Notes: generated by a model not told the origin, from the sequence alone. Shown: positions 1-60,600, numbered from the stretch's first letter. The stretch is DNA of 64,000 nucleotides from Reclinomonas americana ATCC 50394 (GCA_048213135.1 PS015039.1:180619-244618), one strand, 5' to 3'. Translations and numbers: made by a program.

Positions 1-3000
1 AGTCGTCATCGCACCCACAACACTGTTTGTGCCCGTCGTCGGCGGCGTGTATACCGTCGACGACAGTGCAATGTTGGTCGGTGCCACAGGAACTGCACAG
101 CCGCCATGAACTGTTGAGCAACAGCTGGCGACACATACACACATGCAGACACCCACAACCCACCGTCATTCACAGTGAACGACTTGTCAAACGTCGCACC
201 ACCGCTGTCCGTCGTGCGAATCACCACCACGAGTGCAGTTCCCGTCTGTCCATTCGCACTTAAGCGTAACTGTGTCCCGCTCACATTGAACAGCGCCTGC
301 GCAGCGCCGCCGACCACCGAGTACACAAACGTCTCGCCCGTGTTGGCGTCCGTCGAGCTCAGTGTGCCAATCACTGTGTTGACCATGCTCGTCGGCGGTG
401 TGTACGTGTTCGCCGACAGCCCGATATTCGTCGGCGCCACATTGCCTACAACACACGGCAGAGTCAGCTGACTGCATCGTGATTCCCAAACACAAGCTGC
501 GGCACGCACTCTCGTTGAACGTCAGTGTCTTGCTCACGCTGCCGCCGTGTCCGTCGTCCGACGTGATCGCCACTTGCAGACCGTTGCCAGACAGGCCGCC
601 GCCACCCACATTCGCCATCAGTTGAGAGCCACTCACACTGAACTTGCCGCTGTCGGCACCGCCACTGATCGTGTACGTCGGCGTCTGGCAGCAGTTGGCA
701 TCCACCGTCGACAGCGTGCAAATCACACTTCCCAGTGTGGCCGGCGGCACATATGTAGTCGAGCTGCAGCTGATGTTGGTCGGCGCAACGTTGGCTGCGT
801 GCATATCACAGTAAGTCAGTTGATTGTGTGTGTGAAACAGGGAAGGGAGAAGAATGATTCTCTTTCCATTTCTCTCTTCCTCTCTCCTCCTCACCTTCAT
901 CAATCACAAATGTCCGATCAAATGTCTGACTCGTGCTATCCGTCACTCGCACCGTCACCGTCAGGCCGTTGCCAGTCTGGCCGGCGTTGCGCAGCACCAG
1001 ATTGTTGCCGCCTGCAATGTTGAACAGCGCGGCATTGGCGCCGCCTTGCACACTGAACGTGAAGGTGTCGCCCACATTGGGATCCACGCCACTCAGCACG
1101 CCCACGACTGTGTTCGCTGCCGCCGTCGGTGGCACGTACGTCACCGACGTGATCAAGATATTGGTGGGTGGCTGGGGTGCTGTGTGTGTGCGCATGCATG
1201 AAGAGTGTCAGGAGAATGCAACAGGCAACCTCAGACGAAAGGGAGAACGCAACTGTCGGTGATGGTGAATGTTCTCTCGAAGAACAGCGCCCCGGTGCCG
1301 TCATCGGTCGTGCGAATCACCACTTGCCATCCTGTGCCAACCTGTCCGTTGGCGGTGATGCGCAACTGGCTGCCAGAGATGTTGAAGAGAGCGGCGTTGA
1401 CGCCGCCGGTGATGGTGTAGGTGAACGACTGGCAGCAGTTGACATCGGTGGTGGACAGTGTGCCGATCACAGTGTTGGCCATTGTCGTTGGCGGACTGTA
1501 CGATGCTGACGAGAGTGAAATGTCCGTCGGTGCAACGTTCACTGCGAAACGCGCAGTGAGCAGAGATGGCGACCGCAAGTTATCACGAGGCAGGGAACGT
1601 ACCTTCGCTGAACAGGAACGTCTTGTTGAAAGTTCCACCGTGCAAGTCGTCGGTCTTCACAGTGACTTGCAAATTGTTGCCGGTGAGATTGGCAACGGCG
1701 CTGCGCAGCTGGTTGCTGTTCACCTCGAACTTGGCCTGATCCGCGCCACCGATTATCGTGTACACTGGCGACTGGCAACAGTTGACATCCGCAGTTGTGA
1801 GCGTGGCCAACACGCCGTGCAACCCGGTGTGCGGTGTATACAGCAGCGTAGACGGAGTGATGTCCGTCGGTGCCACATTGGCTGCAAACGGCAACCGAAA
1901 CTTTAGCGCACGTGTCCAAGCAATCAATCTCAAGCACGTGCTCAACAAACCTTCGTCAACGGTGAATAATTTGGTGAAAACAAGACCGCCACTGTCAGTG
2001 ACGCGAATCTGCACTTGCAATCCGTTGCCCGTCTGACCAGCAGATGTGAGCTGCAGTTGTGCACCCGAAATGTTGAATAGGGCCGCACTGGCGCCGCCCA
2101 CGATCGCAAATGTCGCAGTGTCACCAGTATTATTGTCAACCATCGCCAGTGTACCCACACCGCTGTTGGCAGCCGCTGTGGGTGGCGTGTATGTGCTCGA
2201 TGATAGAGTGATGTCGGTCGGTGCAACGTTTGCTGTGAGTAGCGAGTAAGAAACCGACAATGTAGGCCTTCAAAAAATACAGCGCAGCTGCCACACGAAC
2301 CTTCGCTAATTGAGAATGTCTGGCTATACACCCCGCCATGGCTGTCGTCCGTCTGTACTCGCACCAGCAAATTGTTACCCGTCAAGCCAGCGCCTCCTTG
2401 CACGGCCACGAGCTGGTTGCCAGTGATAGAGAAGCTGCTTGCATTTGCTCCACCGGTGATGCTGTAGGTAAAGCTCTGGCAGCAATTGGCATCCGTGGTC
2501 GTCAAGGTTCCAACGACAGTCCCCGAGGGTGCGGGCACAGGGGTGTACAGAAGCGACGACAGAGCGATGGCCGTGGGGTCAACATTGGCTGCGGCAATGC
2601 GAGACCGGAAGTGAGAATGAGAAAGGAACACAGCGTGCAGTGCAAGTTGACGAGCAGCACCAACCTTCGTCAAGAACAAACGCCTTGCTGAATGTTCCAC
2701 CAGCTCCATCGTTGGTGCGAATGGTCAAATGCAAGCTGTTGCCGGTGAGACCATTCACGTTCGACATCAGCTGCGAGCCGACGATAGCGAACTTGGCGGC
2801 ATCAGCACCGCCAGTGATCGTGTATGTGAACGACTGACAGCAATTGCCGTCGGTAGTCGTCAGCGAGCCGATGACTCCGTTCAACGCCAGTGGTGGCGTG
2901 TAAGTCAGTGTCGACAAGGTAATGTCGGATGGGACGAGATTGACTGCGCGCACAATGTGAGCAACCAGCGCAGTCAGACGCACCCGACAGCCTCCACAAC

Positions 3001-3452
3001 GCAACTTTCGTTGATGTAGAATGTCTTGTCAAACGAGCCGCCGAAACCATCGGTGAGCCGCACAGTCACTTCGAGATTCATGCCGGTCAGACCACCCATT
3101 ACGTTTGTCCGCAGTTGAGCACCGGCGATCAAGAACTTGGCCATGTCCGCGCCGCCGACCAAGCTGAAAACAAATGTTTGACAGCAGTTTGCGTCCACGG
3201 CTGAAAAGTTGCCGACTGCCGTATTCGCGAAGGCCGGTGGTGTGTACGTCGTCGAGTCCAGCAGAATATCCGTGGGCGGCATGTTGGCTGCGCGTGTGAA
3301 CAGCGAGTGATACCACCATCAGCACCACACTTATCACACAAGCCCGCACACAAGCAGACAAACACACACGCTGCTCGCTGTCCCTCTCTCCCTCTCTCTC
3401 GCTCTCTGTACGCACACAAACACGCACCTTCAGAGAGCGTCAGCGTCTTGTT
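1..3452 (-). CDS. Fragment of cadherin-like repeat array (about 11 repeat exons, first and last partial); runs off the window to the left
   Basis: Repeated ~94-aa units NVAPT(D/N)IxLS..Y.PP....VGTL.T.D.N....FTY.I.GG.....F.I.G.QL.....G.TG.....VRTTD..G..F.K.FTI.E, each on one exon bounded by phase-1 GT-AG introns (donors at 3428, 3005, 2664, 2300, 1950, 1602, 1253, 894, 509, 163). Confidence 0.9.
3269..3452 (-). repeat. Copy 1 of a 184-bp block (exon end + 140-nt intron + exon start), inverted relative to 7424-7607
   Basis: Manual alignment of the reverse complement to 7424-7607: no indels, 6 mismatches; this copy ends at the N gap. Confidence 0.95.
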
Positions 3453-4424: not shown

Positions 4425-7400
4425 ACGGATGCGAATGTGACAGACACGTTCACGTACAGCATTGTGGGTGGAACAGATGCCGGGTCGTTCGATATTGTGG
4501 GCAGCAATCTGGTGATTCGGTCGAACGGATTCGGTGGAACCGGATTGCAGGTGCAAGTGAGGACGACGGACTCGGGTGGACTGACATTCAACAGGACGTT
4601 CACGATCAACGAGGGTGAGTGTAATGGTGTCTGTTGTGTGTGCGTATGAGAAGTTGGTTGTGCTGAACGGGTGCGTGCAGCGAACGTGGCGCCGTCGCAC
4701 ATCAACATCAGTAGCACGACGTACGTGCCGCCGACTGCGACGACGAATGTTGTTGTGGGAGCGCTGAGCACTGTGGATGCGAACTGCTGTCAGACGTTCA
4801 CGTACAGCATCACTGGTGGCAGCAATCAGGCGCTGTTCAACATCAGTGGGTCGAACCTGCGACTGAATGCGGCGGGCCAGACGGGGAACAACCTGGAGGT
4901 GGAAGTGGAGACGAACGATGGCAACGGTGGAACGTATCTGCAGACGTTCTTGGTGTCGGAGTGTGAGTGGTCGAATGCGTTAGTACTTGAGTGCTGCCTG
5001 GTGAACTCACCCCTCGCTGCCGTCTACAGCCAATGTGATCCCGACTGATATTCTGCTGTCTGGGACGCGGTACACGCCGCCGACGGCGACGACGAATGTA
5101 GTCATTGGCGGCATGACGTCGATGGACGCCAACACCAACCAGATTCATGTGTACACGATTGTCGGCGGCAGCGACAGTGCGCTGTTCGACATTGTGGGAA
5201 CGAATCTCGTGCTTCGGGCGGCGGGCCAGAGCGGAACCGGACTGCAGGTGACAGTGCGGACAGACGATCAGGCAGGCGGCACATTTGACAAGACGTTTAC
5301 GATCTCTGAGAGTTGCGTGATGCGCGAGGGAAGTGAGATGGAGATCCTGTCGATATTCATGTTTGTGTGTGCGTGTTTGCACAGACAATGTGGCGCCGAC
5401 CAACATTGCACTGTCGTCGAACACGTACACGCCGCCGACTGCGGCGGCACACAGTGCTGTGGGAAGTCTGTCGACAACGGACGCGAACACGGGAGAGACG
5501 TTCACATACCAGATTGTGGGTGGAGCGGACAGCAGTGTGTTTGAGATTGCCGGATCGCAGCTGCGGATTGTTGCTGCTGGACAGCGCGGCACTGGCCTTG
5601 TGGTGGTTGTGCAGACGACAGACAGTGGCGGTGCGACGTTTGCGAAGCAGTTTACGATCAACGATGGTGAGTGCGGTTGATGATGATGATGATGATGACA
5701 TGTGGTGATCGTGGTGAAGATGGTACTTACGCTGTGTGCAGTGCCTGTTGGACCGACGGACATTTCGCTGTCGAGCAGTGTGTACACGCCGCCGACCGTG
5801 TCAACGAATACTGCGGTGGGCGCGCTGTCTGCGACAGATGGCAATGTGTTGGACACGTTCACGTTCACGATTCAAGGCGGCACGAATGGAGCTCTGTTCG
5901 ATGTTGTCGGGTCGAATCTGGTGCTGCGCAACAGCGGACAAGGCGGTACTGGACTGCAAGTGACGGTGCGAGTGACGGACAGCAGCGGGTTTACGTTTGC
6001 AAAGGCGTTTGTTGTGAATGAGAGTGAGTATTTTCTGAAGGACTTGCAATGAGCAGTGGGGAGTGGTGAGCTCACACATTGTGGACGTGTATACACACAG
6101 CGAATGTGGTGCCGAGCGACGTGGCGCTGTCGACGCTGTTGTATCCGCCGCCGCTGGGAATGAGCAGTGTGGTGGCGACGCTGAGCACGTCAGACAGCAA
6201 CTGCTGCCAGACATTTGTGTACACGATTGTCGGCGGGGCGGATCAGGCCAAGTTTGCGATTGTGGGCAGCCAGCTGCGGTCGAATGTGGCGGGACTGACG
6301 GGCAACAACCTGAAGGTGCAGATTCAGACGGACGATCAAAATGGTGGCACCCTGAGCAAGCTGTTCACAATCAACGAAGGTGTGGTGTTGGATTCTGCGT
6401 GTGTGAGCGAGCGAGAGAGAGGAGAGGGAGGCATTTGTACTGAACGGTGGAGATGCAGCGAACCTGGCACCGACGGACATTGTGTTGTCGAATGACACGT
6501 ATGCGCCGCCGACGGCGAGTACGAATGTTGTTGTGGGAACGATGACAGTGGTGGATGCGAATGGCAGCGACACGCACGTGCTCACGATCAGTGGTGGAGC
6601 GGACAGTGGTCTGTTCAACATTTCGGGGAATCAGCTGCGACTGAGTGCCAGCGGACAGACGGGAAGTGGATTCACGGTGATTGTGCGAGCGACTGACAAT
6701 AGTGGAGCGTTTGTGGAGAAGACATTTGTGATCACCGACAGTTGCGTGTGCATGTGCTGTGCTGTGGTACGTTGATTCTTTGTGCTGACTGTGTCGAGTG
6801 ATGCAGTTCCCGTGGCGCCGACGAACATTGTGTTGTCGTCGTCAACGTATGTGCCGCCGACGCTGCCAACGAATGCGGTAGTGGGGACACTGGTTGCCGT
6901 CGATGGCAATCTTGGGGATGTGTTCACATTTGCCATTACTGGTGGGGCGAATGCGGCTGCGTTCAACATTGCGGGCAATCAACTGCGGCTGTCGAACGTG
7001 GGACAGACTGGGAACGGGCTTGTGGTGACGATTCGCGTGACAGACTCAGCGGCGCTCACGTTCTCGAAGACGTTTACAGTGGATGAAGGTGCGTGGAAGG
7101 GGAAGTATGGAAAAAGAAGGGAGGGCGATGTCTGCTGACACGATTGGTGTGGTGTGGTGAGTGCAGCCAATGTTGCACCGACGGATGTGAGCATCAGCTC
7201 GACACTGTACGCGCCGGTACCTGCGCCACTGAACACGGTTGTGGGCACACTGTCGACGGTGGACGCGAACTGCTGTCAGACGTTCACGTACAGCATTGTG
7301 GGTGGTGCGAATGCGGCGTCGTTCAACATCAGTGGCAATCAGCTGCGGGTGAATGTTGCGGGACTGACGGGCAACAATCTGGTGGTCATTGTGCGGACGA

Positions 7401-10400
7401 ATGACGGTGCGGGTGGGACGTTTAACAAGACGTTGACGCTCTCTGAAGGTGCGTGTTTGTGTGCGTACAGAGAGCGAGAGAGAGGGAGAGAGGGACAGCG
7501 AGCAGCGTGTGTGTTTGTTTGTTAGTGTGCGGGCTTGCGTGATAAGTGTGGTGCTGATGGTGGTATCACTCGCTGTTCACATGCGCAGCCAACATGCCGC
7601 CCACGGACATCGCACTGTCAAACTCGTCTTACGTTCCGCCAACCACGGTCCCGCAAACAGCTGTCGGATCGTTGAGTCGAACCGATCCGAACACTGTGGA
7701 GACGGCTGTGTACACGATTCAGGGTGGAGCACATGCTGCGCTCTTCTCGATTGCTGGAACAAGTTTGCGCCTGGTCAATGTGGGGCAGGTCGGCACGAAC
7801 CTGTCTGTGACCATTCGAGTCACCGACTCTGGCGCACTGTGGTTCGACAAGACGTTTACCATTGTGGATGGTGAGTTGGCGTTCATGGTTGATGGTGATG
7901 TGGTGTTGGTGCTGACACACCACTTGTTCTGCGCAGTGAATGTCCCGGCCACTGACATTGTGCTGTCGGCTTCCACGTATGCGCCGCCAACGGCAGTCGC
8001 CAATGTTGTGGTCGGCACACTTTCTGCGGTCGATCCAAATGTTGGTGACACCCACACGTTTATGGTGAGCGGCGGCACCGATGCTGCCGTGTTCAACATT
8101 CTTGGCGCCTCGCTTCGCATCACTGCCGCCGGTCAGATCGGCACTGGCTTCCAAGTAGTCCTTCGCGCCGTCGATGCTGGTGGCTTGGCATTTTTCAAAA
8201 TGTTTACCATCACACAAGGTCGATAGCTGCGACTCATTTGCGTTGCTGTCGAGAATCGTCCTTACATCCGTGCGCTTACTCGCAGCACCGGTGCCACCCA
8301 CGAGCATTACTTTGTCCGCCACCACGTATGCTCCGCCGACACCTGGGGCCAACACGGTGGTCGGCACTCTGACTGCCACCGATCCGAATGTGGGTGATTC
8401 GCACACATTTTCGATTGTCGGCGGGGCCGATGCGATGCTGTTCAACGTCAGTACGAATCGACTGCGATTGACGAATGCGGGTCAAGTGGGCACGAATTTC
8501 GTGGTCATCGTACGCGCCACCGACTCTGCCGGCCTAACCCTGGACTTCAGTTTCACGATTACACAGAGTTACACGTCGTGCACTGCTCTGTGGATCTATT
8601 GATTTCTTGCCTCTGTGCTCACGCGACTGTGTTTTCGGGTGCAGTCAATGTGGCGCCAACCAACATTCTGCTCTCCACCAATGTGTACGTCTTCCCTACA
8701 ATGGCAGCCAACCAGGTTGTGTGCAACCTGACAGCAGTGGATGCCAATGTCGGTGATTCGCACACGTTTTCGATTGTTGGCGGTGCGAATGCTGCACTCT
8801 TCAACATCGCCGCCAATCAGCTGCGAATCAGTGCCGCCGGAAGTCGTGGAATGGGTCTCCGTGTGGATCTGCGTGTAACCGACGCAGCAGGTCTCTTCTA
8901 CGTCAAAGTCGGCGTCATCATTGATGAAGGTGAGGAAAGAGCGAGCGGCAGATGTCTGTGTGCGCGTGTTGATTGATGATCACATCTTGTGATTCGTTAG
9001 TGAATGTGGCGCCGACCGGTCTCGCCTTGTCGAATCGGCTGTACATTCCCATATCAGGGACCGCCAATTCTGCAGTGGGACAGCTGTCGGCCACGGACCT
9101 GAACTCGAACGAGGTATTGACATACTCAGTAGCTGGTGGGCCGGCCGCCAGCCTCTTTGATGTCCAAGGAACAAATCTGGTTGTCCGGTCGCCGACGCAG
9201 CAGGGCCTGAACTTGCAAGTGACACTGCAAGTGACCGACTCGCGTGGGCTGTCGCAGTCACAGTCGTTCACTATCACTGAAGGTTCCGTTTTTCGCTTTG
9301 TCCGTCATTGTGGTGCTCCGTTGGCGACTGACTCTCTTGGGGATTGTTGTTACAACAGCCAATGTGCCACCGACATCCATTGCGCTGGTGCACAACACGT
9401 TTGCTGTGGAACCCGCGGCGGTGGGCATGACGCCGTTTGCACGACGCGGAACCGTCATTGGACCGCTAGACGTCAGCGACAACAATTGTTGCCAGACGCA
9501 GACATTGACGATTATCGGCGGGCGATCTGGGTCGAAATTCAACGTCACCGGCTCGAATCTCGTGGTGGACGCAGACGACCTGGCTGGCAGCAATCACGAA
9601 GTGCAAGTGCAGACCAATGACGGCAACGGTGGAGTGTACGCGCAGAACGTGTACGTCTTCCAAGGTGCGTGTGTGCCCGTTGTTGTGAGCAGTGTTTTCT
9701 GTTGTGTTCCAACTTTTTGTGTGAATGTGCCGCAGATTTTGGTACCCAGACAGCGCGCATCGGCTCGGGAAATGCCTTTATTCGAGTGCGTGGAGAAATG
9801 CTCTGATCGAGATCCTGGTGTGCTCCCTTCCTCCTTCTCATCATGCTTTGCGCAGGGGAGCTTGTCTCGCAGCTTTGATGCCTCGCTACCGCTGACGCTG
9901 GACTTGATCATGGACGGAGTGGCGCCTGCTGATGTCGCAAAGATGACGTTCGAGTGGGGAATCTATTCGCAAGCGTTGCGTTGTGTCTGTGCGCGAGTTG
10001 GTATCCTGCCGTTTCTGATCGTGCAATTTGAAAAACAGGACCGGCTCACCTTCGGTCAAAGTCGCCTCGTTTGGATGGACACCAAGCGATGGTTTCGCGA
10101 TTATTCCAGCCAACTCATTCGTTCCTGGAGTCGCGTACGAAGCCGAAGCGTGGGTAACGCATCCGCTGACTGGACGAGGTGTGTTGTAGCATTACTTTCC
10201 ATTTGCCCGCAACCATTTGCGATGGAGCTGACGTGTCGTAATCTCGTTTCCGCAGTCCTCATTCGTCGTTTAATCACGGTCAATGTGCCGCCGACTCGTG
10301 GCATGCTTGTCTGTTCGCCGTCTGAGGGAGTGGAGCTGGAGACGGAGTTCGACCTGGTGGCCACTGGTTTCCAAGATCCTGATTCGCCAATGCCGCTGAC

Positions 10401-13400
10401 GTATACTTTCTTTGTGCTCGATCCCGAATCCAATCAGCAGGTGCCGTCATCCCCTGTCTGCCAGTCTCCCGCTGTATGTTGCTGTCTTACTTTGGTCTCA
10501 TTTCTGTGCGCCGCAGTTGACTCTGGGATCGGGTCCATCGGGCAAGGTCAGCGGGGTCAAACTGCAGCACTTGTGCCGCGCTCAGGATCAAGCCATCGTT
10601 GGTGTTACAGCGACTGATGTTGATGGTGGCCGGTGAGTCGTTCACGCACCTCCAATCTCTTGCCGACTTGCTGACTCTTTTCGCAGAACGTCGGTCACCA
10701 CTGTCATTACATTGCATCGCAAGATGTATGCCGACTCCACTTCTGTGCTAGCCGCAGTCGATACAGTGCTGTCGTCGGCCAGTGCCGTGAATATCACGGT
10801 GCGCGCTGAACAGTCATTGTTGATTGGCGTCGCCGTCCGTGACTCACTCTCATCGGTGCTGGTGCAGAGTCCTGGCGCCGCTTCAATTGTGTTGAGCACC
10901 GTGACAGCCAGTTTGTCTCTGCTGAGCGGCAGCAGCATGCTGTTTGGCAATAGTGACACTTCTCCAAGTTAAGTTGGCTGGCCAGCATTCTCGTCTCATT
11001 GATGTCATGCCATTGACGCAGCGGTGCACATGACAGTCGTTTCCCCTTCCGCCTTGACGCGCATGTCGGAGGTCGTGCTTGCCGCCAGCAGTCATGTGTC
11101 CACGGGCGACGGACTGGAATTGGCGTCGTTCGCCTCTGTGGTGAACAATGTGGCGAATGTGAGTGCATGGTGCCTCAATTATACTCTCTGCTACAGTCAG
11201 GAACTGACGTTCGTACCACGCCACACAGGTGACTAGCAGCTTACCAGCCGCCGACATGCAGGTCGTGCGGCAGAACCTGGTATCCGCGGCACGCGCAGTG
11301 GCGCAGAATCTGTCGGCATACCCGTCGACTGCTGCGCTGAGTGTGCGTTCGTGTCAGCGCGCGTCGTTCTCATTGCGTGCGAGGTGTAGTTAGCAGCTGA
11401 CCGATGTTTTGCTCTCTTGTTGTTGCAGTCACTGGCCGAGGCCGTGTCGACCATGCTTTCGCTGCCGACGACAGACGAAGCAGATGCGATTGCCACTCAG
11501 TGCGCCTTGGAGCCGGTGTTGAATCAGATCGCACATCGCACAGTGGCTGGACTGGTGAGTCTATTGTTGTGCGTTGAACATTGCCGTGCATGCTCACTTG
11601 GTGAGCAGACCGGGAAAGAGGGTGCGACAACGGTTTCAACGCCAAACTTTACGTTCCGAGCCCAAAAGGTGGACCCAACTGTGACATCGGCTTCCAAGGG
11701 AGCATACTCGGGTGAGCCACAAGCCCTTCAAATCGACAAGTGTCCTCGTGGAGTTCTCACCATATATTGGTTTCTCAGTGGCATTTGAGACGCTGACGTC
11801 TGCGCGCGGTTCTGATGCGCTGCAAACTCCACTTGTAGTCTTGCCGCATACGATAGGCCAGCGACTCGCCGGTGACGCTGATCACTTTAACGCGCTGGTC
11901 GAAGTGCGTCCTTTGGTTATGTACAGTGCATGTACAGTGATTTGCTAACTGTCCGTGCCCTCACAGGTGGGCTTTACTGGCGTGCCGATTGTCAATGCGA
12001 CCAACGACTACAATAAGAAGGCGCAACCGTCCAAGGTGTACGCATACTCGGTGCAGGTGTGCTTGACGACTGAGACATCTACTGCCAATCGTGCGAGTGT
12101 ATCTGACGCTTGCTGCGCAGAGTCCCGAAGACACTGTATCGGTAAAGGACGAGCAGGAGCCACTGGTTCTTGTGATTCCCGAGTGGCAGAGTGTGATTGG
12201 CCAGTACAACCAAACGTTTTCACGGATTGCCATGTGCATGTTGCAAAACTGCACCAATGCAAGTTGCGCAAATGTCACTATCGCAGACAGCGCTCATATT
12301 TGTGACTTACATCGCCGCTCCTTCGGTGCGCAGCGGAATCGGAGTATCGATTCAACGTGACCACCGCGGCGCCGATGATGATTGAGTTGCCGAATACGTG
12401 GATTCCACTGTGTGTCTCTCGCGACGTATGCAAGACCGGCAATCGGTTGAGTGCCACCGGACTAAGCACATACATTGTGGTGGAACCGATCGTGAGGGGC
12501 CAGCTACCGAATGTTGTGTGTTTGTGCATGCCTCTCTCACGGTGTTGCTGTGTCACTGACGAAGAGTGGAAACAGGTCACTGGCGTCTTTTGTGCCACCA
12601 GTCACATGACCGACTTTGTTGCGTTTCTTGTTGGTGTTTGCGTGGTGTGATCCAGTTGTGTTGAATAATCTTCATCGTCCATGCAGACGCTGGATCTGTC
12701 GATCCTGCCAAAGATCTCGTTCACGTTTGCCAGTCCGGCGGATGCCAATCTGATTGCGAAGCACAACGTGTTCCTCAGCCCAACGTTCTTCCTCCTGTGC
12801 ACATATTTTGTGCTGTTTGTGGTGACTGTTGTGGTCATGTGGCGTCGCGATCGCGCTCTGGACGTGGAGGTATGTCGCTGGCCTCTAGTCTCGGACACGC
12901 ACACAGACATTCCCTGCGTGCTTGTTCTCAATCATCATTCGCCCCATGAATAGGATGAAAGTGCGGTGCAGCAGCGCCACAAGTATCTGGCGCGGCTCGC
13001 TGAGCTGGCGGCTGTTCGTGATCGCGAAATGCAGGCTGTGGAGGCGAAAGTGGGGAGGGACGCGACGATACCTGCGACGGCACCCACGATTTCTGTTGAT
13101 GACGGCGATCACCTGCGAGAGAGGGTGCAGTCTCGACGACGTGGTCATCTACTGGGCGTGGCGTCATGGCTGCATGTACCCATGGAGTCCTCGTTCATCC
13201 TGCCCGCGCCACCTCCGGCAGTAGCAGACGACGGGTCAGAGCGTGTCGCTTCCGCCCGTCGCCGCATGTCGCGGTTCGTCGAGGAGCCAGTTGAAGAAGA
13301 AGAGGAGTCGCCGGTGCGCTCGGCTAGTCGGCGAGGAGACTTGCGGCCGATTGGATCCATGATCCGACACCAGGTTTGCACGACTCTTCGGACTCTTGTA

Positions 13401-17306: not shown

Positions 17307-19031
17307 TCATGGGAGAGGCTGTACAAGGCGCGGCACCACACGCGGTCTCGCTCGCTTTGGTGCGCTCTCGTCGTCCACCGACATGGGCTGCACGGTGACT
17401 GGAGTTGCACTGCTTGCCAGTGGTGTCGCACTGGACTCAGCCTCGACACTCGTCTGTGCGCACTTTTCCACTCTCCGCTCCTCATCCTCCCGTCCCTCGT
17501 CCTCGTCGTCCTCATCCTCCTCAGCTGACGAATCCTCGTCGCACACAAAGGCAACGCGTGCAGGAACCTCCCCGCTTGATTTTGAAGCCTGCAAGTGCAC
17601 TGCGGACTGGTCAGCGGAGCCGTCTGCAGCCGCGTCGGCCATCCTGCGCACGGTGCACTTCAGATCATCACTTGCTCCCCCACATACGCACGCATTCACA
17701 CACAACACACAGGAGACCACACGCAACTCGACGTCTGGCACCACATCCGCAACGACACCGGAGGCCGATGCGGCGACAGTGGCCGCAACCGTGGCTCGCT
17801 TCCGACCGCCACCGCGCTTTCGCGTGGCGCCGCCCACCTTGGTGAAGCGCACGGCTTCCTCCTCGCGCATCTTACTCAAAATAGCATCTCGTTCTGCGTG
17901 GGCATTGATGGTCGGTGCAACAGTGTGACACAGAAGAGCAGAGCATGGAGGAAAGCACAAACCTTCGGCGGCAATGGGACTGCCGAGCTCGCCCTCCGCA
18001 AACGTCAAGAACGAGCAGTAGCCGTCGGAGCTCGACACACACAGCAGTCGACCGTCTGCGCTCCACGCCACGTCGGTGATGCTGGCGTAGTGCAGGTCGG
18101 TGGCGAACGCAATCGGCGACCAGTTCTGCGTGTCGTACACAAAGACGGCATTGACACTGGCGACAGCAAACACCATACGGTACGGCAGCGCCGCCATCGG
18201 TTGCACTTCGTCCACGTCGTCAGCGTCGTCATGCAGTTTGTGGTACAGCACGGGCGAGAAGCGCGCGGCCACAGTCACTTTCTGTCCCGGCAGCGGCAGG
18301 TGCAGCGCAGGGCGCGAGAATGAGTGTCGCGAGAAGACGTAGGTGGTGTGAACGAGTGGTCCATTCGGATCGTCCCGATACTGCGCCGTGGGCGCCAGCA
18401 TGATGGAGCCGTCGGGCGAGAAACACGGTCGACGGAAGAACGTGGCGATCGTTTCGTCGCGGAAGTAATTGTGTGCAAACTCACCGCCATTGTGTGTGTA
18501 CGCTCGTCGCCGCACATTGTGAGTGCAGGCGTACGCGAGACGACCCTACACGTAAACGTGTGAGACGGCGAAACAGCAGACAATGCACCACCAGCCAACT
18601 ACGGAGCGTACCTTTTGCGCCGAGGTCACCGAGCGCGAGTAAACGCGGAACCCACGATCGGATGACAGGGAGAGCAGCATGGTATCCAGTGGATCCCACG
18701 CCACACCCTGGACATAGTGCGACGCCTCTGTCAGTCGCAGCAGCGACTTGCCTGCGCAGAAAGAGTGTCACACAGTGTTTGCCATTTGCGCAGCTGACAC
18801 ACACCACACCTTTCTCCGCATCCCACACAATCACCGTGTTGTCGATGGAGCCGGTGACCAACTTGGTGCCGTCGGGTGACCACGCCACGTCGTACACATC
18901 GGCCGAGTGTTCACTCAGCATCTTCCCGTTGTCCCAGCTCTCCTTGTTGTCGGAACCGGCCTCCGGAGGTCGCCCAGTCAACCGGTACACAAACACAGCG
19001 TGATCGTCGCCGCACGAGGCCAGTCGATCGT
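17307..19031 (-). CDS. CHAF1B: Chromatin assembly factor 1 subunit B (p60/Cac2), WD40; 5' end in gap
   Basis: HSADVYDVAWSPDG, FRDETIATFFRRPCFSPDGS, LPYRMVFAVAS..VYDTQ..LHYASITDVAWSADG..SSSDGYCS; C-terminal RPRVVP resembles the Asf1-binding B-domain. Confidence 0.9.
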
Positions 19032-49900: not shown

Positions 49901-51510
49901 CGGCGCGTGCAGCAGCAGCAGCAGAGCCCGGCACGCCAAGACCGCGATCGGCCACGACTCGCGACCGATCACATTCACCGTCGTCTTCGTCACTCTCACA
50001 ATCCGGTCGCCGGCCATCACCAGCACGCACTGCCTCCACTGCTGTTGCTGGTGGCGGGGGGCACTCGCGCTCCACGTCCATTGTCGAGTACGATTCGTCG
50101 TCGGACGAGGAAGCAGTGGAGCAGGGCGGGCGCCGTCTGTCGTCGAGTCGCATGCCAAGTCGTCCTCCGAGTCGGCCAGCCAGCGCCTCCCGTCGCTCCG
50201 CCTATCACCCACGACCGCAGTCGTCACCGGGCTATCGAGCGGGCGACGTGCTTGCTGCTCGGCCGCGCAGTGCCAACGCCAGTGTGCAGCGCACGAGCAC
50301 TTCTATCGATCCGTCCTCGTCGGCAAACTCGACCCCTCTTGCCAGTGTCATTGGCGGTTCAAGTGAGGCTGGCGACCTGGTGGACGTGGACGACGTGGAG
50401 GGGAGTGACGGAGCGGAGGATTCGTTGGATATTGCGGAGAGGGCCTACCGCAAGGCACGGCCACTGTCTCCACAACAGCAAAAGTCTGACAGGCCGCGCC
50501 CGCCGCATCTGGCCTTTGTCACCAGCTCTGTCGATTCCAGCGGCAGCGGCAGTGGTGGTGGTGTTGGTGGTCTTCGCTCCCGCTCCACCGCCATCTCTAC
50601 TACTGGCCGGCCTGCTACTCCCATCGGTGCGCCGCCGCCGCCACCACCACCGCCCATCCAATCGCCAGAGTCTCCGCACCGACCGCCCGGTGCGCCATCC
50701 TCGGCTCGTTCCCCACGTTCTCGTGCTCCGCGCGTCAATCACCATTTGCGAGTGGTACGCTGTAGTCCGTTTGTGTGAGCACCTTGTGTGTGCGACACTT
50801 GTTTACCGATGTGCATGCAGAGTGCGTTTGAAAAGGCGGAAGACGACGACGCCAGCAGCCGGACGAGTGGGAGCAGCAGCGGCGGCGGTGCACCGCCCGT
50901 GTGGAAGGCGCTGAAAGAAGTGGTGGCTTCAGCTGACCTCGAACCCGTCTCGCCCATATCGTACACGCTGCGCAAGTGCGTGAAAGCCACTCACGGTTGT
51001 CTGGTGTGGCGCACATCTCACGTCATGTTTTTCCTCTTGTGTGAACACAGATCAATGCATCCTTCCGAGTTGATCCTGGAGACAGCGCGTCGTCTTGATG
51101 TTGCGCACACCAGCAGTGCATCGTGTCTTTCCCACACCATGTGAGCACTCAATTCGTATTCTTTGTGTATGCAGGTGGGAGTGTTGACCACGAACACAGC
51201 CAATCCTCAACTGTTCAGTCGTCGCCCAGCACGCCCGCCGGATCCAAATTCACCGTCCGAGCGCGAAAAGCGAACGCAGTCACTCATGCGTGTGGATGTT
51301 GGCATGCCGAAGAAGCCGAGCGTCGCCGACGTGATGCGCAGCGTTTCCGCCACCGCGGCCGGCAACACGTTTTTCGGTGGCGCTGCCTCCGATCGACATG
51401 CGGCTCGCCAACCCCGCCGCCCACAGACCGCTGGCTCTCGCCGACCGCCGCCAGCGCCGTCATCGAGGACACTGCCTCTGCGTCCTAGTTCAGCGCACTT
51501 GCGGTACTGA
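46973..51510 (+). CDS. Large hypothetical protein: helical N-half, Ser/Pro/Arg-rich disordered C-half
   Basis: Consistent multi-exon frame from MASAADSGESS to ..SSAHLRY*, including a 14-nt micro-exon at 49313-49326; no family recognised. Confidence 0.7.
47499..47612 (+). ncRNA. Candidate intronic box C/D snoRNA
   Basis: In an unusually long 380-nt intron (47328-47707): C box ATGATGA 47505-47511, D box CTGA 47602-47605, terminal stem GGGA/TCTC, second CTGA 47576-47579. Confidence 0.35.
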
Positions 51511-51687: not shown

Positions 51688-54600
51688 TCACCGCAGAAGG
51701 GAGAATGGCCGTCCCTCAGCACCGGCACTAGCTCCAGTTGGTCCCATGACCGCACCGTGCTGTACCAGCAGACGGGTCTGTCGTGGCAGCAGGCCCTTGA
51801 CTCCCGCCAGACTCACTCCAACAAGATTAAGTGATCGCAAATCCACCAGCGGCTGTCGGCATCACAGCAAGTCAGGACACATACACACAAAGACGACTCG
51901 CACTCCACGCACCGCAGCAGCAGCAACACCGTCACCCTGCGCCGCCAGCGATATCGCTGTCAGCCAGTGGAACGTCAGCTTGTCGCCCATTATCTGGAAG
52001 TGCAGCACATCGACGTGTTCGCCGTCTGGTGTGAAACGATACAGCGCCTTTTCCTTGTCGCTCGTCGGTCTGACAACGAGGCGGATGGTGTCAAGAGAGC
52101 GCACATCCCGAATGCGACCTCCGCGTCGCGTCTCGTACCACGTGCCCTGCAGCACCCCCCTGCAGTCAGCGAGATGTCCCGAATACAGAATGCCACTACC
52201 CACAACGCACCACGAAGAGCGCGCCAGGCGACAAGCACAGGTTCACGATACGAGGTGCGCAGCTGAAACGATGCCAGCTGCCTCGTTCAACGCCCGATTC
52301 GACATCCCACAGTACAACACCGCCGTCGTGAGACAGAGATGCGAGCGTGTTGCCGGATGGATCGAACTCGACACTGCGTGTTGTCGCGTGAGTCGTGCGC
52401 CTCTGCGTTTGTCAATGCAGCGGCGACAACGGATTACCAGGTGATGAATGACCGCTCGTGTTTCGGGCTGCACAGGGTCTTGCTCCGCCGGTACAGCCGT
52501 TTCTCGACGTCCCATTGCCAGATGGTCACCTTGGAATCCATTCCGCCCGACGCAAGAAGCTGCACTCCGTCGGCACGGGGCTCACAGAATCGCACGCACT
52601 GCATGATAGGCAATGAGAAAACGGGAGCGAGTCGACATCACAAGACACATATGAACGCACCGTGACACCGTCGCGGTGGCCGAGCAGCGTCTGCGCCGGT
52701 GACACCAAGGTGTGTACAGTCTGCAACGCGCGAAAGTGAGATCGAATGCAATCAGAGTTCGGGCACAGATTGCTTCACCTCGCCAGCCAGTGGCAAAGTC
52801 CAGATGTCGATGCGATTGTCGCGACGAGCAGTGGCCTGTCCGCCAAGCAAACGTGAACAACGTTGTCAAAGGAAACAGAACACGAGTACGCGCTCACCAT
52901 TGTCTTTCCGTCACTCGACAGCGCCATGCTGACAGTCGAGATACTTCCACGATCAATGTAGAACAGCAGACGCCCGTCGTTGAGTGCCCACACAAAGGTC
53001 TTGCCGCCGGTGCAGCTGGCAGCGAAGAGAACTCGGTCGGATGCCGCGCCAGAGAAACAGCTGCTGATGAAGCGGTTCTCCATTGTGGAGCGACGCTCCA
53101 AAATCACGGTAGGCAACACCGCCTGACCACTGGCGGCCTCCGTGGTCCACGCGCGTGGACGTGGCGATCCGCTCATGTAGTCGACCGCCACCACGTGGCG
53201 CAGGTCGGGAGAGCAGTAGATCGCCCGTTGAGAGTCCGGACGCGGCGGTGCCACGATGCGCTCGTCACCGAGCATCCACGAGCGCACCGTCTGATCAGCA
53301 GACGCGGAGACAAGCCGCTCACGGCCATTTCGCTCGCGGGCAAAGCGAACACTGCGCACCCATCCGCTGTGTGCACTGATACTGCGCAGAAGGCGCCAGC
53401 TTTCCGTGTCGAACAGACACACAGTGCAGTCGTTGCCGCAGGACGCAAGATACGAGCCATCGGCAGAGAAGTTCAGATCCCACACCTGCACTTGCACGTT
53501 AGCGGCACGCCACAACGATTGAGAAGCGGGAAGAACGCACCCAGCCGGTGTGCTCTCGCAGCGTGTGCTCCACCACCCACGTGCTGTCGTCGGAGGTACT
53601 TTGCAGCCACACACGGACGGCCTGATCACGTCCGCCCGTGGCGATCACGGAAGGCAGCTGCGAACGGACGGCGACGGCATTGACACTGTCGGAGTGCTTC
53701 AGTGGTTTGGAGCGCGGAACCCACACTTGTTCGTCGTCTTGCTGTGAGGTCGAACCGGCGGGCAGCTGCTGCTCCCACAGGCGCACCATTCCGTCCCAGC
53801 TTGCCGACACCAGCACTTCGACGCCGTCAACTACTGCAAACGTCACATCTTGGACGGGACCGGAGTGGCCGTGCAGCACGCCGTGCGGAAGCAGCTTCAA
53901 GCGACCCGCTGCACACTTGTAGAGCCGAATCTGCGCGATCAACCAAGAAAGAATGAGCACTGGCGTGCACAAGAATAGTGAAAGACTGACAACTCTCGTC
54001 ATGCCGCCGTCCACCTACCGTGTGATTGGAGAAGCCGACAGCGAGCAAGCCGAGGTGAGGAGTCGAAAATGCCAAGCTTTCGGTGCAGTACGGGCGCGAC
54101 GTAGCAGTGTGAGCCAGCTGTGCGACGAATCAATGTCAGGCCGCTGCAAGTTAAGGGTCACGCTTGCCAGTTAAAGACGCAACCACACGCTCGCACAACA
54201 TGGGAGCCACTTGCAGGTCACAGAGGTTGACAGCAATATCTGCAGTGGCAATGCGCATTTAAAAACCCCCGTGCAACAACAGTCACCCAGTGCTGACCAC
54301 GCAACAGCTCTCATCGGTGAACGAGAAGGAGCGGTCAAACTCGGTGCACAGTCGATTCATCACATGTTGCAGTTCGGTGTCATTCACATCGACCAAGTCC
54401 GCGTGCGTGAACAGCACCAGCAAGTCAGGCTGCGTGCATCAACATGAGTGCTGTGCGCCACACTCAAGACGATCCCACTATGCGAACGAAACTCTCAGTC
54501 CGCGGATCGATGCCAGGTGCGGTGCGCATGTTACCAGCATGGACAACCACTGCACTTGGTCCTGCAGTGATCGTGCTGTGGCAAGGATGAAGATGTTGAG

Positions 54601-57600
54601 CAAGAACAATGCAACCCGCCTGCCAGCACAGCAGCATCAAGACGCAACAGGAGCTTAGGTCGACGGTGAGGCACACCAGCGCCACCGACTGCCCTGTGGA
54701 AGGCACTGTATCCCCGCATATGAATGTTGGTCACACGGATTGAAGAAACACACAAGAAATTGCAACGGAGAATGCACACACACACCAAATGCGGCCGTCA
54801 TGTCGGACTCGTTCTCCACGACAACAATCTCGAAGCTCGCCTCCTCCGTATCGATGCGACTCACGCCACCGCTCTCATCGACCGACGACGACGTGTGACG
54901 ACGGAGAACTCCAACCAACTCGGCTTTGCCGGATTCAGGCGGACCGAGCACCACACTGCGAAAAAAATGTGCATGAGCGAGAAGACGACAGCCACTCAGC
55001 GTGCCACACAAACACGCAACATGCGACAAGAAGTCATTGGGTGACGGGCGCGGGTGCCGGGACTTGCAGACTCGGCGGTCGAATTGCAGCAGCAACTATC
55101 GTCGACCTGGTCGACCAATTCCAGCCGGTCGTCGTCGCCTCGTTGGAACAGGCACACATCGCAGCCCTTGCCACCCGACGCCACGTATCGTCCATCCAGC
55201 GAGAATTCGACCACCGGCGGTGCATCCTTGTGTTCGTGCACCACACCGCAATCGACTCCGTCCTCGGCATACAGACGAATCGTGCCATCGCTGCAACAGC
55301 TCACGCATTCGGATCGAATCACACCATCGCACACGCCACATAAAAATGCTTACCGACACGCCGTGACCATCAATGGTGAAGTCGGGCAGCAGGCGAGCGA
55401 ATTGATGCCGACATCGTGACCCGGCTGACACGGCACCTCCGTGACCGGCAGCTGATTGAACGAGCAGCCCTCCAAATTCGCACCCTCCAGCTTCGCATTC
55501 GGCGCCCACACGCCCTCCAAATAGGCACCACGCATGTCGGCACCTCGCAAATCGACGCCCTCCAGCGACGCAAACGAAAGATTCGCTCCACATGCCGCCA
55601 CGTTGCGCATGTCACCGGCCAGTCGCGGATCGGTGGCGAATTCGAAGCCACACCAGTTGAGAAGCGAAATGGCTGAACGATGCAAGTTGTGTGCTTTCAG
55701 CAACACAAACAGGAAGGCAGAGAGGTTGTGCACGCAGTGCGTCTCACCATTGCCTGACGCGACGCTAATCTTGGCGGCGTATTCCTTGTTCTTGGAGAGT
55801 CGGACCAAGCGGACGAGCTGATCTTGCAGGCGTGGTGTGTGCTTCAACAGATCCGCATAGAAGACCAACAGAGCGTAGAACTTGGTCAGCGGCAGCGTAT
55901 TCAGGGCAGTCACACCCTGGGCGATCCGAATAAACTCCTCGTCGTCATCATCGGGAGCACTGCATCGCCAGCGCGTGTTAGACGCTGCTGCACCGCACAG
56001 AGGCCACCCCAATCAACGCAACTCCAACAGCACCAGCGTACTGCGCACGTAAAAGTACTGCCGGATCACGTCGTAGCTGAAGCTCCAAATCTGCGGCAGA
56101 ATAATACACGTCGGTTGTGCAAGCCCCACAACAACCACGCAGTCGATCCTCACCTCTGACTGGGAGCCAATTCGGTACTCCAGCACAGTCATCTCGAGTG
56201 GGCACGAGTCCAACAGAAGCTCGGGGTCCATGACAGCGCCGTCCTTGTACAGTGGACCAAGGCGCTTGGCTGGATTGTGCGGCTGCACAAAGACAAACTC
56301 GCGCGACACAAACATCTTCAGCGCCAACCGCTGGCAATAGTCGAGCAGTTCGTCCTCGGTGGGCACTCGGTCGTCAACCCGGCTGCGCGCATCCAGTGCC
56401 CGGCGCATGCGCTCGCGAACAAACTGGTCCAACAGGCGCCACTGGAGCGGGATTCGCCCGCCCAACAACGCCGCGTGGCTCATGGTCGACTCGCACAGCT
56501 GGTCAATGACCAGGCGCAAAAACAGCGGGAAACGCATGAGGTCGCTCAGTTCCGTGGCGGCACTCAGCGCCTCGCTAATGACATCAAACATGTCCTGGCG
56601 CGGCACGTACGCTCGCACGAAATCACGAATCTGCGAGTTGGACAGCGGAGCAAGTGCCACCACGCACAGCCGCCCGGCGTCCGGCTGACCAGTGCGCGTG
56701 GACAGCGGAGCGAACAGAGTCGGCAACTCGGGTTTCACCGGACTCAGCACGAAGCGCTGGCGACACGTGATGACCAACTTGGCATTCTTCCAATCGGCCA
56801 GCTGACAGACGAGCACGGGCGTACAAGAGTGAAAAAATGCGGTTGTGTGTGTGGAAAACAAGGACTCGGCGCAAACCTCAGGGAACTGAGTGAACACGCT
56901 CTTCTCCACCATGAGACTCTCCCAACCGTCCAGGAAGAACACCGTCGGCAAGTTGCGCAGCTCGTTGATTTCGCTGTCGGAGAAGCTGACGCACTCTGGC
57001 GCACGACGCAGCCACTCGCTCGGTCCAATCATGCGGCCGTCGACCCTAGCAAACGACAGCGTCTGGTGCACCGGAAAGAAATTCTGCGAGCCTGCACCCC
57101 ATCGTTCGGCCAGCGAACGAGTTGCCTGCACAGAGAATGTTCTGCGCGCGTGTGCACGAGAAACACATAAGTCAGCTTAAGGCCTCGCACTCGTCATCCG
57201 CTCGCCCCGTTGAGACGCAACGTTTTCCCGGAACCAACATCAGCCAAAACCACCATGACGCTCTGCACAGATTGGATGTGAGCGAATGGTTGTGGCAACA
57301 AGCGGCGGACAAGAAAGCAAGGAGACCTTGTGAGGCGACTGAAGAAAGGTCTCTAGACGGCCAAATAGGTCCTGCAGTCTGTTGCCTGCACCGGGTGCCT
57401 TTGGAGCAATGTACACGTCGGTGGCCTTGAAGCGCTGCTCCAGCAGGGTCTCTTGTGTCATCAGAAACATGTCGAGTTTGGTACGCACTGCCGCGATGAC
57501 ATATGAGGACAGAGAAAGAAAGCACAGCATTTTTCTCTCGATAGACAACTCACATCCAGAGCCGAGGTTGACATCCGACACCGTACGCGGTAGCACACTG

Positions 57601-60600
57601 AACGCGTCAGTGTCGGAGCTTGAGGCACCCGCCGAAGGCAGAGTGACTGAACCGCTGCGCTGGTTGAAACTGCGCGCCATCCCACCGCTCGCATGCATGT
57701 CGTCGTACAGCAGGCACTCGTTCCAGCGCTCTGCGCGGGGCACGATCATGTCAGCACTCGCAAACGGAATGACAAGGAGGTGAAAACAGGTCGCACACCA
57801 TTGCGCTCCCGCATGGCCAGCAAGTGGTAGTCACGGTCGGAGAGGCACGGGTCACTGCTTCGTCGTGGCAGCGCCACCGGCTGCAGAAAGGTGGTGCTGG
57901 TGACCGAGCGGGCCAGCGTCGCTCGCTGCGTGTCGGCGTCTTGTTCCGCTGCGGGTGAGGACAGTAAGGCCGCTCCCGCCGCCGCCTCGTCGTCATCATC
58001 GCTGACGTCGATGAACGAATCTGTATCCAGCACGTTGCCGACAGGAACCGTGACGTAGTGGCGGTCGAAGACGTCCAGTTCGCAATCGTCGTCACCGGCG
58101 ACACTCACATTGTCGGCACTCACATGTCGCACAGGTGGTGTGGTACCGAGAGACGATGGCGAGCTACTGCGCGAAGCGGCCGACTTGACCAACACAGGAG
58201 TCGGCAACAGACGCAGTGCACGGCTTGCCACGGCGTCGCTGACCAGGGGCAGAACGAAAACGGTGGAGAGCGGGATGTGTGCCGACTGCTCGGCGCTGGC
58301 GGTCAGCACTGCTGACTCGGTGACGGCGGCGGCGTCCAGCGGTCGCACAAGGAGCTCGTCCACTGCGAGCAGGTGGGTGAGAATCAAAGTGAAGCACCGC
58401 TGGAAACGCGTGAGACAGCGACTACTCAACGATGTTGCAGATGCTCGTCCAACACCACGCGGCACGCCTGAATGCGCGCCTCAAAGGCCAGCTCCTCGAA
58501 TCGCTGCGAGTCCACTCGAAGGCGAAGCTCAAGAGCAACAAAGTCGGGAGTGGGCGTGGCCGATTGCAGGTCGACAAACTGCAAAAATAAAAAAAGACGA
58601 AACGTGTTAGATCGATCGATGGTTGATCGCAAGTACATCTCAGCACTACGCACCGTCGGATCAACGAATGGTGCTGAGTGCTCCCGGATTCTGTGCAGCA
58701 CATGGCACAACAAGGCCGCCACTGCGTAATTGAGATGCACGTACGCCTCGAAGAGGAGCTCCTCCACCAACTGCGGCGGGAAAGTAATAGAGAGCGGGTG
58801 AGAAAGCAAGAAGGGAAGATGGGGATACAAGGAGACGCAACTGCAGCAGCCTGCTCGTCGTCACTCAGCAGCGGCAGTGTGCATTGCAACACTGTGCCGA
58901 CCACAGCAATGTCGCAGCGGGCGGCAGCCAATAACAGGGCATGCTGTCCGACGCGATTGCGCTGCACGAGAAGCATTTCTGCGGCCAGAGTCGGCGGAAG
59001 GGCGGCCACAAGAGCCACTGCATTGTGCGAGGTGAGGAAGGAATAAAAAATGGACGGGTAAGAAAAAGAAAAGAGAGAGAGGAGTGCGACGCACCAAGAC
59101 CGGCCATCGCTGCAGACTTGCGCTCACTGCTCGCGTCTGTGCGCGAATCGTCCGACCCGCTGTCGTCGGCGGGCGACGAAACCTAACAATCAACAAGCAA
59201 ACCGTGAACAACAACTCGGATGGAGCTCACATGCCACAGAAACCAACGCACCGTAGAGGAGAGGTTGCCCTGCGAGCCCACGGCGAGCAGCATGGGAAGA
59301 TTGAGCAGCTCGCTGGTCATCAAGGTGGCCAGCTGTGCCGGAGGCACGACCGTCAGCTGGAGAATGGCCACGAAAACTTGCGGATGGGCAAGAGCGGCGA
59401 GTGCCAGCGGTGAAAATCCCACACCAACGGCGATTTCGTCGACCAAAGCCGCGCAGCTGGTGGGACGCAGTCAAAAAAACGGACAGCGACCGGCCGGTGA
59501 GAAGAAGCGGGGAAAATGTGCGCAACAGTTCGGCGGGAGTGACGGTCGAGGCAATGCGGCGCAGCTGAGCAAAGTCGTCGTTGAGAATGGCCTGTTCCGT
59601 CGGCGAGGGGGTCGATGAGTGCACTGCCGATACAATGATGCAATCGAAAAAAAGGCAACGCACCTTGAAGAGAAGCATGCACAGAGCTGCATGTGCGCCG
59701 CCGGTTCCGTTCGGTGTCTGCGGTGCTGGCGAAGCAGCCGAGACGAAGCCACCGGATCCACTGGCCGAGTGACCGGAGGACATGGACGAGGCGCCGGGTG
59801 AGCCGTCGGTGGGCATGGAGCGGTTGGACGGGCGCCGGACGGCCACTGCGGGATCAGAAGAAGGGTAAGGAGAAGGGGAGGAGGGAGGAGAAGGGGGAAG
59901 GGGAAGGAGAAGGGAGAAGGAGAAGGGGAAGGAGAGGGAAAGGAGAAGGGGAAGAAAAAGGTGAAGGAAAAAGGGGAAGGAAAAGGGGGAAGGGGAGGAG
60001 AAGGCGGGGGGAGAAGGGGAGGAGAAGGCGGGAGGAGAAGGCGGGAGGAGAAGGGGAAGGAGTAGGGGAAGCAGAAGGGGGAAGGAACAGAAGTAAGGAG
60101 GGAAGGAACAGGGGGAAAGAAAAGGGGGAAGGGAAAGGGGGAAGGAGAAGGGGGAAGGAGACGGAAGAGGGGAGCAGTGAAGCGAAAATAAACCAAGAAA
60201 GAGAGAGAGAGCGAGAGAGTAAAAACGCAACTCTTGCCAGATAGCTGCTGGGCAGGGAGGCGTCTCTCCACCACCAGCGTCACCCACTGCTCCGACACCT
60301 CCACGTGCCCATCTGTGTGCAGCGTCGCAAAGTACACGTGCGTGCGTCCCTCTTTCTGCGCTCCCAGCACCTGTCGTGAGATACAGCGCACCGGGGAGCA
60401 TGAAAGGCACCCACAAAACGCACCTGAGCCAGCACCTGCACCTTGGTCTGCACATCATCGGTCGATGCACCGAGAGGGCGTACCGTCAACTCGTCCTGAT
60501 CAAGTGTCGGTCAACAGGCAGTGCGTTGCGAAAAAAGAAGGCAGGCAGCGACTCGCAGCGACGCAACAAGGCGAACAAGAGCCGAAGAGTCGGTGCTTGC

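Follow-up and report, generated by a model that had tools for sequence, protein, structure and literature searches.

How does a spliceosome read a donor whose conserved bases stand one position too far into the intron? The question is raised by a stretch of 64,000 nucleotides (nt) from Reclinomonas americana ATCC 50394 (GCA_048213135.1 PS015039.1:180619-244618; the whole stretch is called the window below), in which many introns appear to begin with GTTGCGT. A preliminary description of the window had listed 22 such introns beside the GTGCGT and GTGAGT donors, had taken each to be a normal donor with an extra T, and had suggested that they form a major class pointing to an altered recognition register or to a variant small nuclear RNA (snRNA). 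Recognition of the donor by the 5' arm of U1 is among the most conserved RNA–RNA contacts of eukaryotes, and slid or bulged pairing registers are treated as rare exceptions in mammals.

We analysed the abundance of the motif irrespective of any gene model. GTTGCGT is present in 41 copies on the two strands of the window, against 16.19 ± 4.10 in 100 dinucleotide-preserving shuffles, of which the richest had 26 copies and none reached 41. Within high-scoring gene spans 35 copies lie in the sense and 3 in the antisense orientation (binomial p = 7e-8), and 3 more lie outside such spans. The strand bias of GTGGCGT (17:8) and of GTCGCGT (6:8) is much weaker or nil.

To avoid circular reasoning in counting donors, we used a purpose-built gene finder whose donor rule was GT alone, while acceptors were scored by a matrix and intron lengths by a prior, and the codon model was seeded from frames that Pfam had confirmed; introns were counted only in predicted genes scoring above 25. 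In this donor-blind pass GTTGCGT started 20 of 169 introns (12%; p = 2e-21), where 0.84 would be expected from its share among all 8,227 GT sites of the window. A second pass, self-trained on the recurrent 5-mers at positions +3 to +7 of the intron, placed it at the start of 28 of 173 introns (16%), which makes it the commonest donor heptamer, ahead of GTGCGT (24) and GTGAGT (13). Because the gene finder is imperfect, both percentages are estimates for one window, within which the description of a major class is borne out. The shift itself is seen in the donor-blind set as well: G at +6 with T at +7 is found in 24 of 54 GTT donors, as compared with 115 of 1486 GTT sites of the window as a whole, while donors not starting with GTT have the pair at +5/+6 in 44 of 115 cases and at +6/+7 in 7 of 115. 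A lack of +6G/+7T enrichment among GTT donors, named in the preliminary description as grounds for refutation, is thus not what this window shows.

All 22 positions listed previously carry the motif on the strand given for them. Seventeen were recovered as donors by the donor-blind pass and 21 after self-training; the remaining site, 44664 (plus strand), is ambiguous, as the model chose 44669 with a different acceptor and either solution is in frame. Seven further GTTGCGT donors were predicted, at 12618, 33900 and 37082 on the plus strand and at 60567, 43477, 42500 and 17727 on the minus strand. The 28 introns are spread over 9 of the 15 gene spans. Twenty-three must be removed, having either a length not divisible by three or an in-frame stop; the other five (22971, 33900, 37082, 48899 and 17727) could be read through. 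These observations show that the heptamer is enriched, biased to the coding strand and used as a predicted donor, and confirm GTTGCGT at the DNA level as a real donor class.

It could be argued that the class is an artefact of base composition or of the gene models, given that the gene finder was purpose-built and partly self-trained and that 5 of the 28 introns are readable through, or else that it is a family of mobile introns (introners) sharing a terminal GTTGCGT. The excess of 20 over 0.84 in the pass that was blind to donors, the shuffles (16 against 41) and the 35:3 strand ratio all speak against an artefact, and only one related pair was found when 161 introns of up to 150 nt were compared with their ends trimmed, which speaks against introners. 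We consider both versions extremely improbable.

The one related pair, 7513/3363, belongs to a duplicated segment beside a gap. Mobile introns were also looked for within the class, where no related pairs were found beyond low-complexity matches of 12-13 nt; on average 1.85 6-mers are shared between two GTTGCGT introns, 1.49 between two other introns and 1.69 between the classes. Recent duplication as a source of the motif was rejected too, the only duplication found being an inverted copy of 184 nt with 97% identity at a gap edge.

In other respects the introns are unremarkable. For introns of the window the median length is about 67 nt; the 3' end is CAG in nearly all of them, and most have a CTNAY branch motif, which lies about 19 nt before the acceptor. 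All 28 GTTGCGT introns are of the form GT...CAG, with a median length of 67.5 nt (68-70 nt in the others), and the branch motif is found in 21 of them and in 36 of 49 canonical introns, at median distances of 19 and 19.5 nt, respectively. Judged by length, branch motif and acceptor, they are ordinary U2-type GT-AG introns. U12-type introns, which are read by U11, likewise combine a rigid donor motif with degenerate donors of the major class beside them; they differ, however, in having an RTATCCTT donor and a rigid branch site, and the GTTGCGT class has neither. A U12-type identity was rejected, as TATCCTT occurs once in the window and the branch motif is that of the other introns.

Where exactly does the cut lie? 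Frames alone cannot fix it, because an alternative donor 3 nt downstream (GTT|GCGT, with a GC start) is in frame at every site and creates a stop only at 22971. The position can be read from two arrays of cadherin-like/REJ repeats, one running from 4425 on the plus strand and one at 4-3382 on the minus strand. Correctly placed units of these arrays end one base past a final E, D or Q codon, and the next exon contributes two bases followed by N-[VL]-x-P; this holds at 13 of 13 other donors and at 4 of 4 GTTGCGT donors. The four GTTGCGT units (5312, 6741, 3005 and 1253) keep the domain spacing only if the cut precedes GTT. The preliminary description had relied here on an exact exon length of 282 nt, which is correct at 5312, 6741 and 3005 but not at 1253, where the exon has 288 nt and reaches the same domain endpoint, ending with TITD plus one base.

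The second case is an intron of the DNA polymerase alpha gene (24.6-28.6 kilobases (kb), minus strand). Of all 55 frame-compatible pairs of donor and acceptor around this intron, scored against 12 homologs, 27381|GTTGCGT joined to the acceptor at 27324 ranked first (score 3108); the GC alternative scored 2998, and a second GTTGCGT, at 27372, scored 2811. The product spliced at 27381 aligns without gaps to an intronless DNA polymerase alpha homolog from a metagenome (L001). A scan of metagenomes for relatives of the window gave three loci, all distant, and was informative for this junction only.

GC-AG introns starting 3 nt on, with GTT left in the exon, would be an alternative wherever that choice stays open, that is, at every site except 22971, where it creates a TAG. 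They would, however, add one residue to 4 of 4 array units, when 13 of 13 other units hold the spacing, and would lower the score at 27381 from 3108 to 2998 and break the gap-free match to the metagenome homolog. In addition, GC donors usually have a strong consensus, and GCGT would be one without it. This alternative has almost no probability in our estimate. The array, DNA polymerase alpha and the stop at 22971 show that the predicted cut lies before the first G of GTTGCGT.

With the cut in place, the bases around it can be compared between classes. The last exon base before the 28 GTTGCGT donors is A in 16, T in 7, C in 4 and G in 1, as against G in 42 of 63 GTNNGT donors (Fisher p = 6.5e-9; p = 1e-5 in the donor-blind set), in agreement with the earlier remark that nearly all follow an exon that does not end in G. 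The base at +3 can only be T: GTAGCGT, GTCGCGT and GTGGCGT were used as donors in 0 of 1, 0 of 14 and 0 of 26 occurrences, respectively. Thus, the two rules, T alone at +3 and an exon end other than G, are features of the class as predicted.

These rules do not extend to GTT donors at large, 14 of 59 of which follow a G. Among them +6G with +7T is found in 32 of 45 donors after a base other than G and in 1 of 14 after G (p = 2.7e-5), and in the donor-blind set in 23 of 39 and 1 of 15, respectively. Since +6G+7T goes together with a non-G exon end, GTT donors fall into two kinds, AG|GTTnG... and MA|GTTGCGT. The former would be read in the normal register, with little of the downstream sequence kept.

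The heptamer is rigid: about 10 near variants stand beside 28 exact copies. Sister forms are few (GTTGAGT 2, GTTGCGC 3, GTTCCGT 1-2 and GTTTCGT 2). The ratio of GCGT to GAGT is 28:2 in the shifted class and 24:13 in canonical donors (p = 0.007). The view that the class consists of normal donors with an extra base therefore needs correction: the extra base is indeed always T, but the class is almost only GCGT, and because the ratio differs it is not made up of every normal donor plus a T. Among canonical donors, T at +6 accompanies 13 of 28 GTGAG and 24 of 29 GTGCG starts (p = 0.006), a compensation by which these donors behave as though position 5 of U1 pairs with A. Counting all predicted donors, some of which may be misplaced, +3 is G in 83, T in 59, C in 19 and A in 12, that is, a pyrimidine in 45%; as A is the rarest base and pyrimidines are so frequent, the usual purine rule at +3 fails here. 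The general form of donor in the window is GTNNGT, most often GTGCGT.

How might such a donor be read? The reading we favour, and to which we give about an even chance, is that the ordinary spliceosome recognizes GTTGCGT in a register slid by one base and cuts before the first G. The conserved G-U pair would then be met at +6/+7, in place of +5/+6 in canonical GTNNGT donors, and MA|GUUGCGU would present the nine-base face of a canonical MAG|GUGCGU, the sole change being a U for G opposite C8 of U1. The +1 G of the intron would substitute for the G at the exon end, and cleavage would fall one base upstream of the normal cut of the slid register, no other GU being available. On an exon ending in G the normal register would suffice and the downstream GCGT would not be kept; we propose that GTTGCGT rarely follows a G because a G at -1 makes the normal register enough. 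The altered register of the preliminary description accords with the patterns at -1 and +3, while the register itself, and U1 as its reader, are what we infer.

The normal U1 register with one U bulged out at +2/+3 would account for the same T: this register needs U at both +2 and +3, according to the criteria in PMC4856993, and U is found at +3 in 28 of 28 introns, by definition of the class, with no other base used there. A G at -1 should, however, still pair with C9 of U1, the more so in a weak site, and such exon-end pairing is not kept here, as G is found at -1 in 1 of 28 donors and in 42 of 63 canonical ones; the predicted stability of the bulged duplex is also very low. The slid register is favoured over the bulge because the bulge predicts G at -1, the opposite of what is observed, and we regard the bulge as quite unlikely.

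Several points weigh against the slid register as well. With a human-type U1 arm (AUACUUACCUG) the mean duplex energy of GTTGCGT donors is -1.6 kcal/mol, in comparison with -4.8 for GTGCGT, -9.0 for GTGAGT and -2.9 kcal/mol for 1000 random GT sites. The slid pairing, with C9 on +1 and C4 on +6, folds in 5 of 28 cases with this arm, from which that of the host may differ. A standard U1 should favour A over C at the position equivalent to canonical +4, whereas the shifted class has 28 GCGT to 2 GAGT. At -1 the mismatching T and C each outnumber G (1 of 28), and this needs an argument from relaxed constraint that goes beyond pairing. Furthermore, the data come from a single window of 64 kb, the junctions are derived from frames, repeats and homology, and the gene finder misplaced at least five array donors, judged by the 282-nt period, and fuses adjacent genes.

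A variant snRNA keeps a share of the probability because the human-type arm pairs with GTTGCGT worse than with random GT sites. A dedicated second reader, be it a variant U1, another snRNA or a protein, would have an arm fully complementary to A|GUUGCGU, and the organism would have two donor codes, on the model of U11 and the U12-type introns. A rigid heptamer (28 exact copies to about 10 near variants) together with poor pairing to the standard arm, below the level of random GT sites, is the product expected of such a reader, and this keeps the idea alive. A perfectly matching arm would explain the 28:2 ratio of GCGT to GAGT, against 24:13 in canonical donors, which a slid standard U1 would not, and an A at -1 (16 of 28) would lengthen the duplex. 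Yet such an arm should accept G at -1 by wobble pairing, and G is seen there in 1 of 28. Unlike in U12-type introns, branch motif, acceptor and length are as in the other introns. In a search over every single and double substitution of arm positions 3-10 of U1, the area under the curve for separating donors from decoys rose just from 0.67 to 0.71, a gain so small that no better arm was singled out. The 5' arm of U1 is, moreover, among the most conserved RNA segments, which counts against a variant. A scan of the 64-kb window with Rfam models revealed no snRNA gene and nothing at gathering score, leaving a dedicated reader without direct support there. Such a reader seems to us unlikely, though it deserves to be kept in mind. 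Two parallel codes, a degenerate GTNNGT for standard U1 and a rigid A|GUUGCGU for a second U1-type snRNA or for an altered U1 arm, are likewise doubtful; if real, they would add a third kind of spliceosomal donor recognition to those by U1 and U11.

With the threshold of the Rfam scan relaxed to E values of up to 1, only three weak resemblances to microRNAs appeared. Two of them, matches to microRNA families on both strands of 22800-23020 (E = 0.002 and 0.25), come from a hairpin between a GA repeat and the CT-rich sequence with which the 22971 intron begins. They were rejected as a low-complexity artefact.

We compared the class with shifted donors described in human cells. Sites of this kind were described by Roca and Krainer in 2009 and re-tested by Tan et al. 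in 2016 (PMC4856993), where the shifted register is established for a test site whose exon ends in A (Table 2 of that paper). In that source all the validated noncanonical registers, taken together, account for 1.5% of 201,541 human donors, which agrees with the earlier statement that they are a rare atypical class in mammals; the bulge at +2/+3 contributes 54-68 predicted sites (Table 3). The human shifted register, as presented there, shares with GTTGCGT a cut at GU with the U1-pairing bases one position further into the intron, an A at the exon end of the published test site and a second intron base that is a mismatch. The differences lie in number and in pairing: the human shifted sites are a handful among 201,541 donors and pair well with U1, whereas the class described here accounts for 12-16% of the introns of the window and consists of one near-invariant heptamer with poor predicted pairing to a human-type arm in any register. 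With the human bulge at +2/+3 it shares an intron start of GUU and the displacement of the remaining consensus by one base; the human bulge, in contrast, keeps the pairing of the exon-end G that the GTTGCGT class avoids (1 of 28). A GTTGCGT (GUUGCGU) splice class, or a slid donor class extending over a whole lineage, was not found in the literature searched, in which subscription journals are thinly covered.

The individual introns of the plus strand are as follows. Both passes of the gene finder agreed on 5312..5384 (73 nt, 3' of the 282-nt array exon 5030-5311; removal required by the frame), 6741..6806 (66 nt, also 3' of a 282-nt array exon; in-frame stop at +32), 12618..12686 (69 nt; in-frame stop at +30), 22971..23036 (66 nt), 33900..33974 (75 nt, in the bromodomain gene), 35179..35237 (59 nt, directly 5' of the bromodomain exon; removal required), 47328..47707 (380 nt; stop at +15), 48899..48958 (60 nt) and 49019..49089 (71 nt; stop at +6); those at 22971, 33900 and 48899 are among the five open to read-through. 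The self-trained pass added 37082..37156 (75 nt, also open to read-through) and three introns whose removal is required and for which the donor-blind pass had chosen another donor: 9975..10038 (64 nt; 9983 chosen), 37445..37503 (59 nt; 37425 chosen) and 48049..48112 (64 nt; 48061 chosen).

On the minus strand both passes predicted 59846..60231 (386 nt) and 58771..58841 (71 nt), both with removal required; 57142..57221 (80 nt; stop at +25), which splits a P-loop motif; 55960..56022 (63 nt; stop at +7); 54956..55020 (65 nt; stop at +22), where GC, 3 nt further on, is the one alternative that keeps the frame; 54240..54305 (66 nt; stop at +20); 54118..54183 (66 nt; stop at +30), the sole member with G at -1; 42442..42500 (59 nt; removal required); 2944..3005 (62 nt), 3' of a 282-nt array exon and supported by the array spacing; and 1180..1253 (74 nt; stop at +20), 3' of the 288-nt array exon. 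Splicing at 57221 rebuilds the P-loop as GSGKT-TF. Four more came from the self-trained pass: 60496..60567 (72 nt; stop at +54), 54576..54648 (73 nt; removal required, 54629 chosen by the donor-blind pass), 43391..43477 (87 nt; stop at +63) and 17644..17727 (84 nt, in the gene resembling HIR1/CAF1B; open to read-through). The best-validated case is 27324..27381 (58 nt) in the DNA polymerase alpha gene, where the junction scores best against the homologs and the Pfam domain stops at the donor. The body of the 59846-60231 intron is of low complexity, being nearly all CT-rich near-repeats (CCTTCTCC and similar), and its length is far above the 67-nt norm.

Of the sister forms, both passes supported the GTTGAGT donor of 58363..58430 (minus, 68 nt), which had been reported previously, and a second one, 14845..14913 (plus, 69 nt), together with the three GTTGCGC donors of 12263..12333 (plus, 71 nt), 51100..51174 (plus, 75 nt) and 59457..59526 (minus, 70 nt). 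The GTTCCGT donor of 9283..9358 (plus), also reported previously, follows a G and is supported by the 282-nt period (array exon 9001-9282), though the model chose an in-frame GT at 9304. At 15258, proposed as a probable GTTACGT donor, the score is about zero whether the model includes the intron or not. Two minus-strand donors, at 29851 (AAG|GTTTGCGT) and 27075 (CAG|GTTTGCGC), have the TGCG core two bases late and an exon ending in AG; they fit the normal register through a G at +5, yet look like a further step of the slide.

The window is eukaryotic, with a G+C content of about 55% and 11 N gaps, and holds closely packed genes whose introns are short. Genes were identified by Pfam matches on long open frames. 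Besides the two arrays they comprise a WD40 gene resembling HIR1/CAF1B (about 17.4-19.0 kb, minus), the DNA polymerase alpha gene, a gene resembling ornithine decarboxylase (about 30-31.5 kb, plus), a multi-bromodomain gene (32.2-39.2 kb, plus) and a large gene with P-loop, pentapeptide and WD40 motifs (about 50.8-62.1 kb, minus). The last, at about 50832-62134, is predicted as one very long gene holding a P-loop (GSGKTTF), a GTPase-like P-loop (GPPESGKAE), pentapeptide repeats and WD40 repeats, and may be two genes fused by the model. Searches for homologs found none for the P-loop exon 56154-57140 (329 residues) or the bromodomain exon 35455-36117, and just 2 weak matches among 1.84 billion representatives for exon 48326-48898. 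Comparison of exon 35239-35382 with solved structures confirmed a bromodomain; the alignment, over residues 7-47, begins too late to include the junction.

In a tree of DNA polymerase alpha the sequence from the window falls outside the rows of fungi, animals and plants; its branch is long (1.34), and its best identity is 45%. Two of the three metagenome loci, L002 (525-848) and L003 (204-566), are interrupted by inserts with stops at the codon where the 27324-27381 intron lies, and L001 is uninterrupted; the intron position may be old and shared with the L002 and L003 homologs. Between the N gaps 26290-26309 and 26843-26954, a segment of DNA polymerase B (Pfam E = 6e-31) is encoded by the plus strand of the piece 26310-26842, opposite to the rest of the gene (24606-28611), which is on the minus strand. 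This piece is most likely a contig scaffolded in the wrong orientation.

The 184-nt inverted copy mentioned above joins 3269-3452 with 7424-7607 at 97% identity and directly abuts the N gap 3453-4424. The cadherin-like arrays flanking this gap point in opposite directions. Either the assembly is at fault here or the inverted duplication is real.

A genome whose commonest donor heptamer is slid, and is also the one that pairs worst with a standard U1 arm, would serve as a natural experiment on how the binding of U1, the hand-over to U6 and the selection of the bond to be cut are uncoupled, and the class may indicate a variant snRNA. For annotation, gene finders trained on matrices with +5G and +6T would put roughly one in seven donors of this genome in the wrong place.

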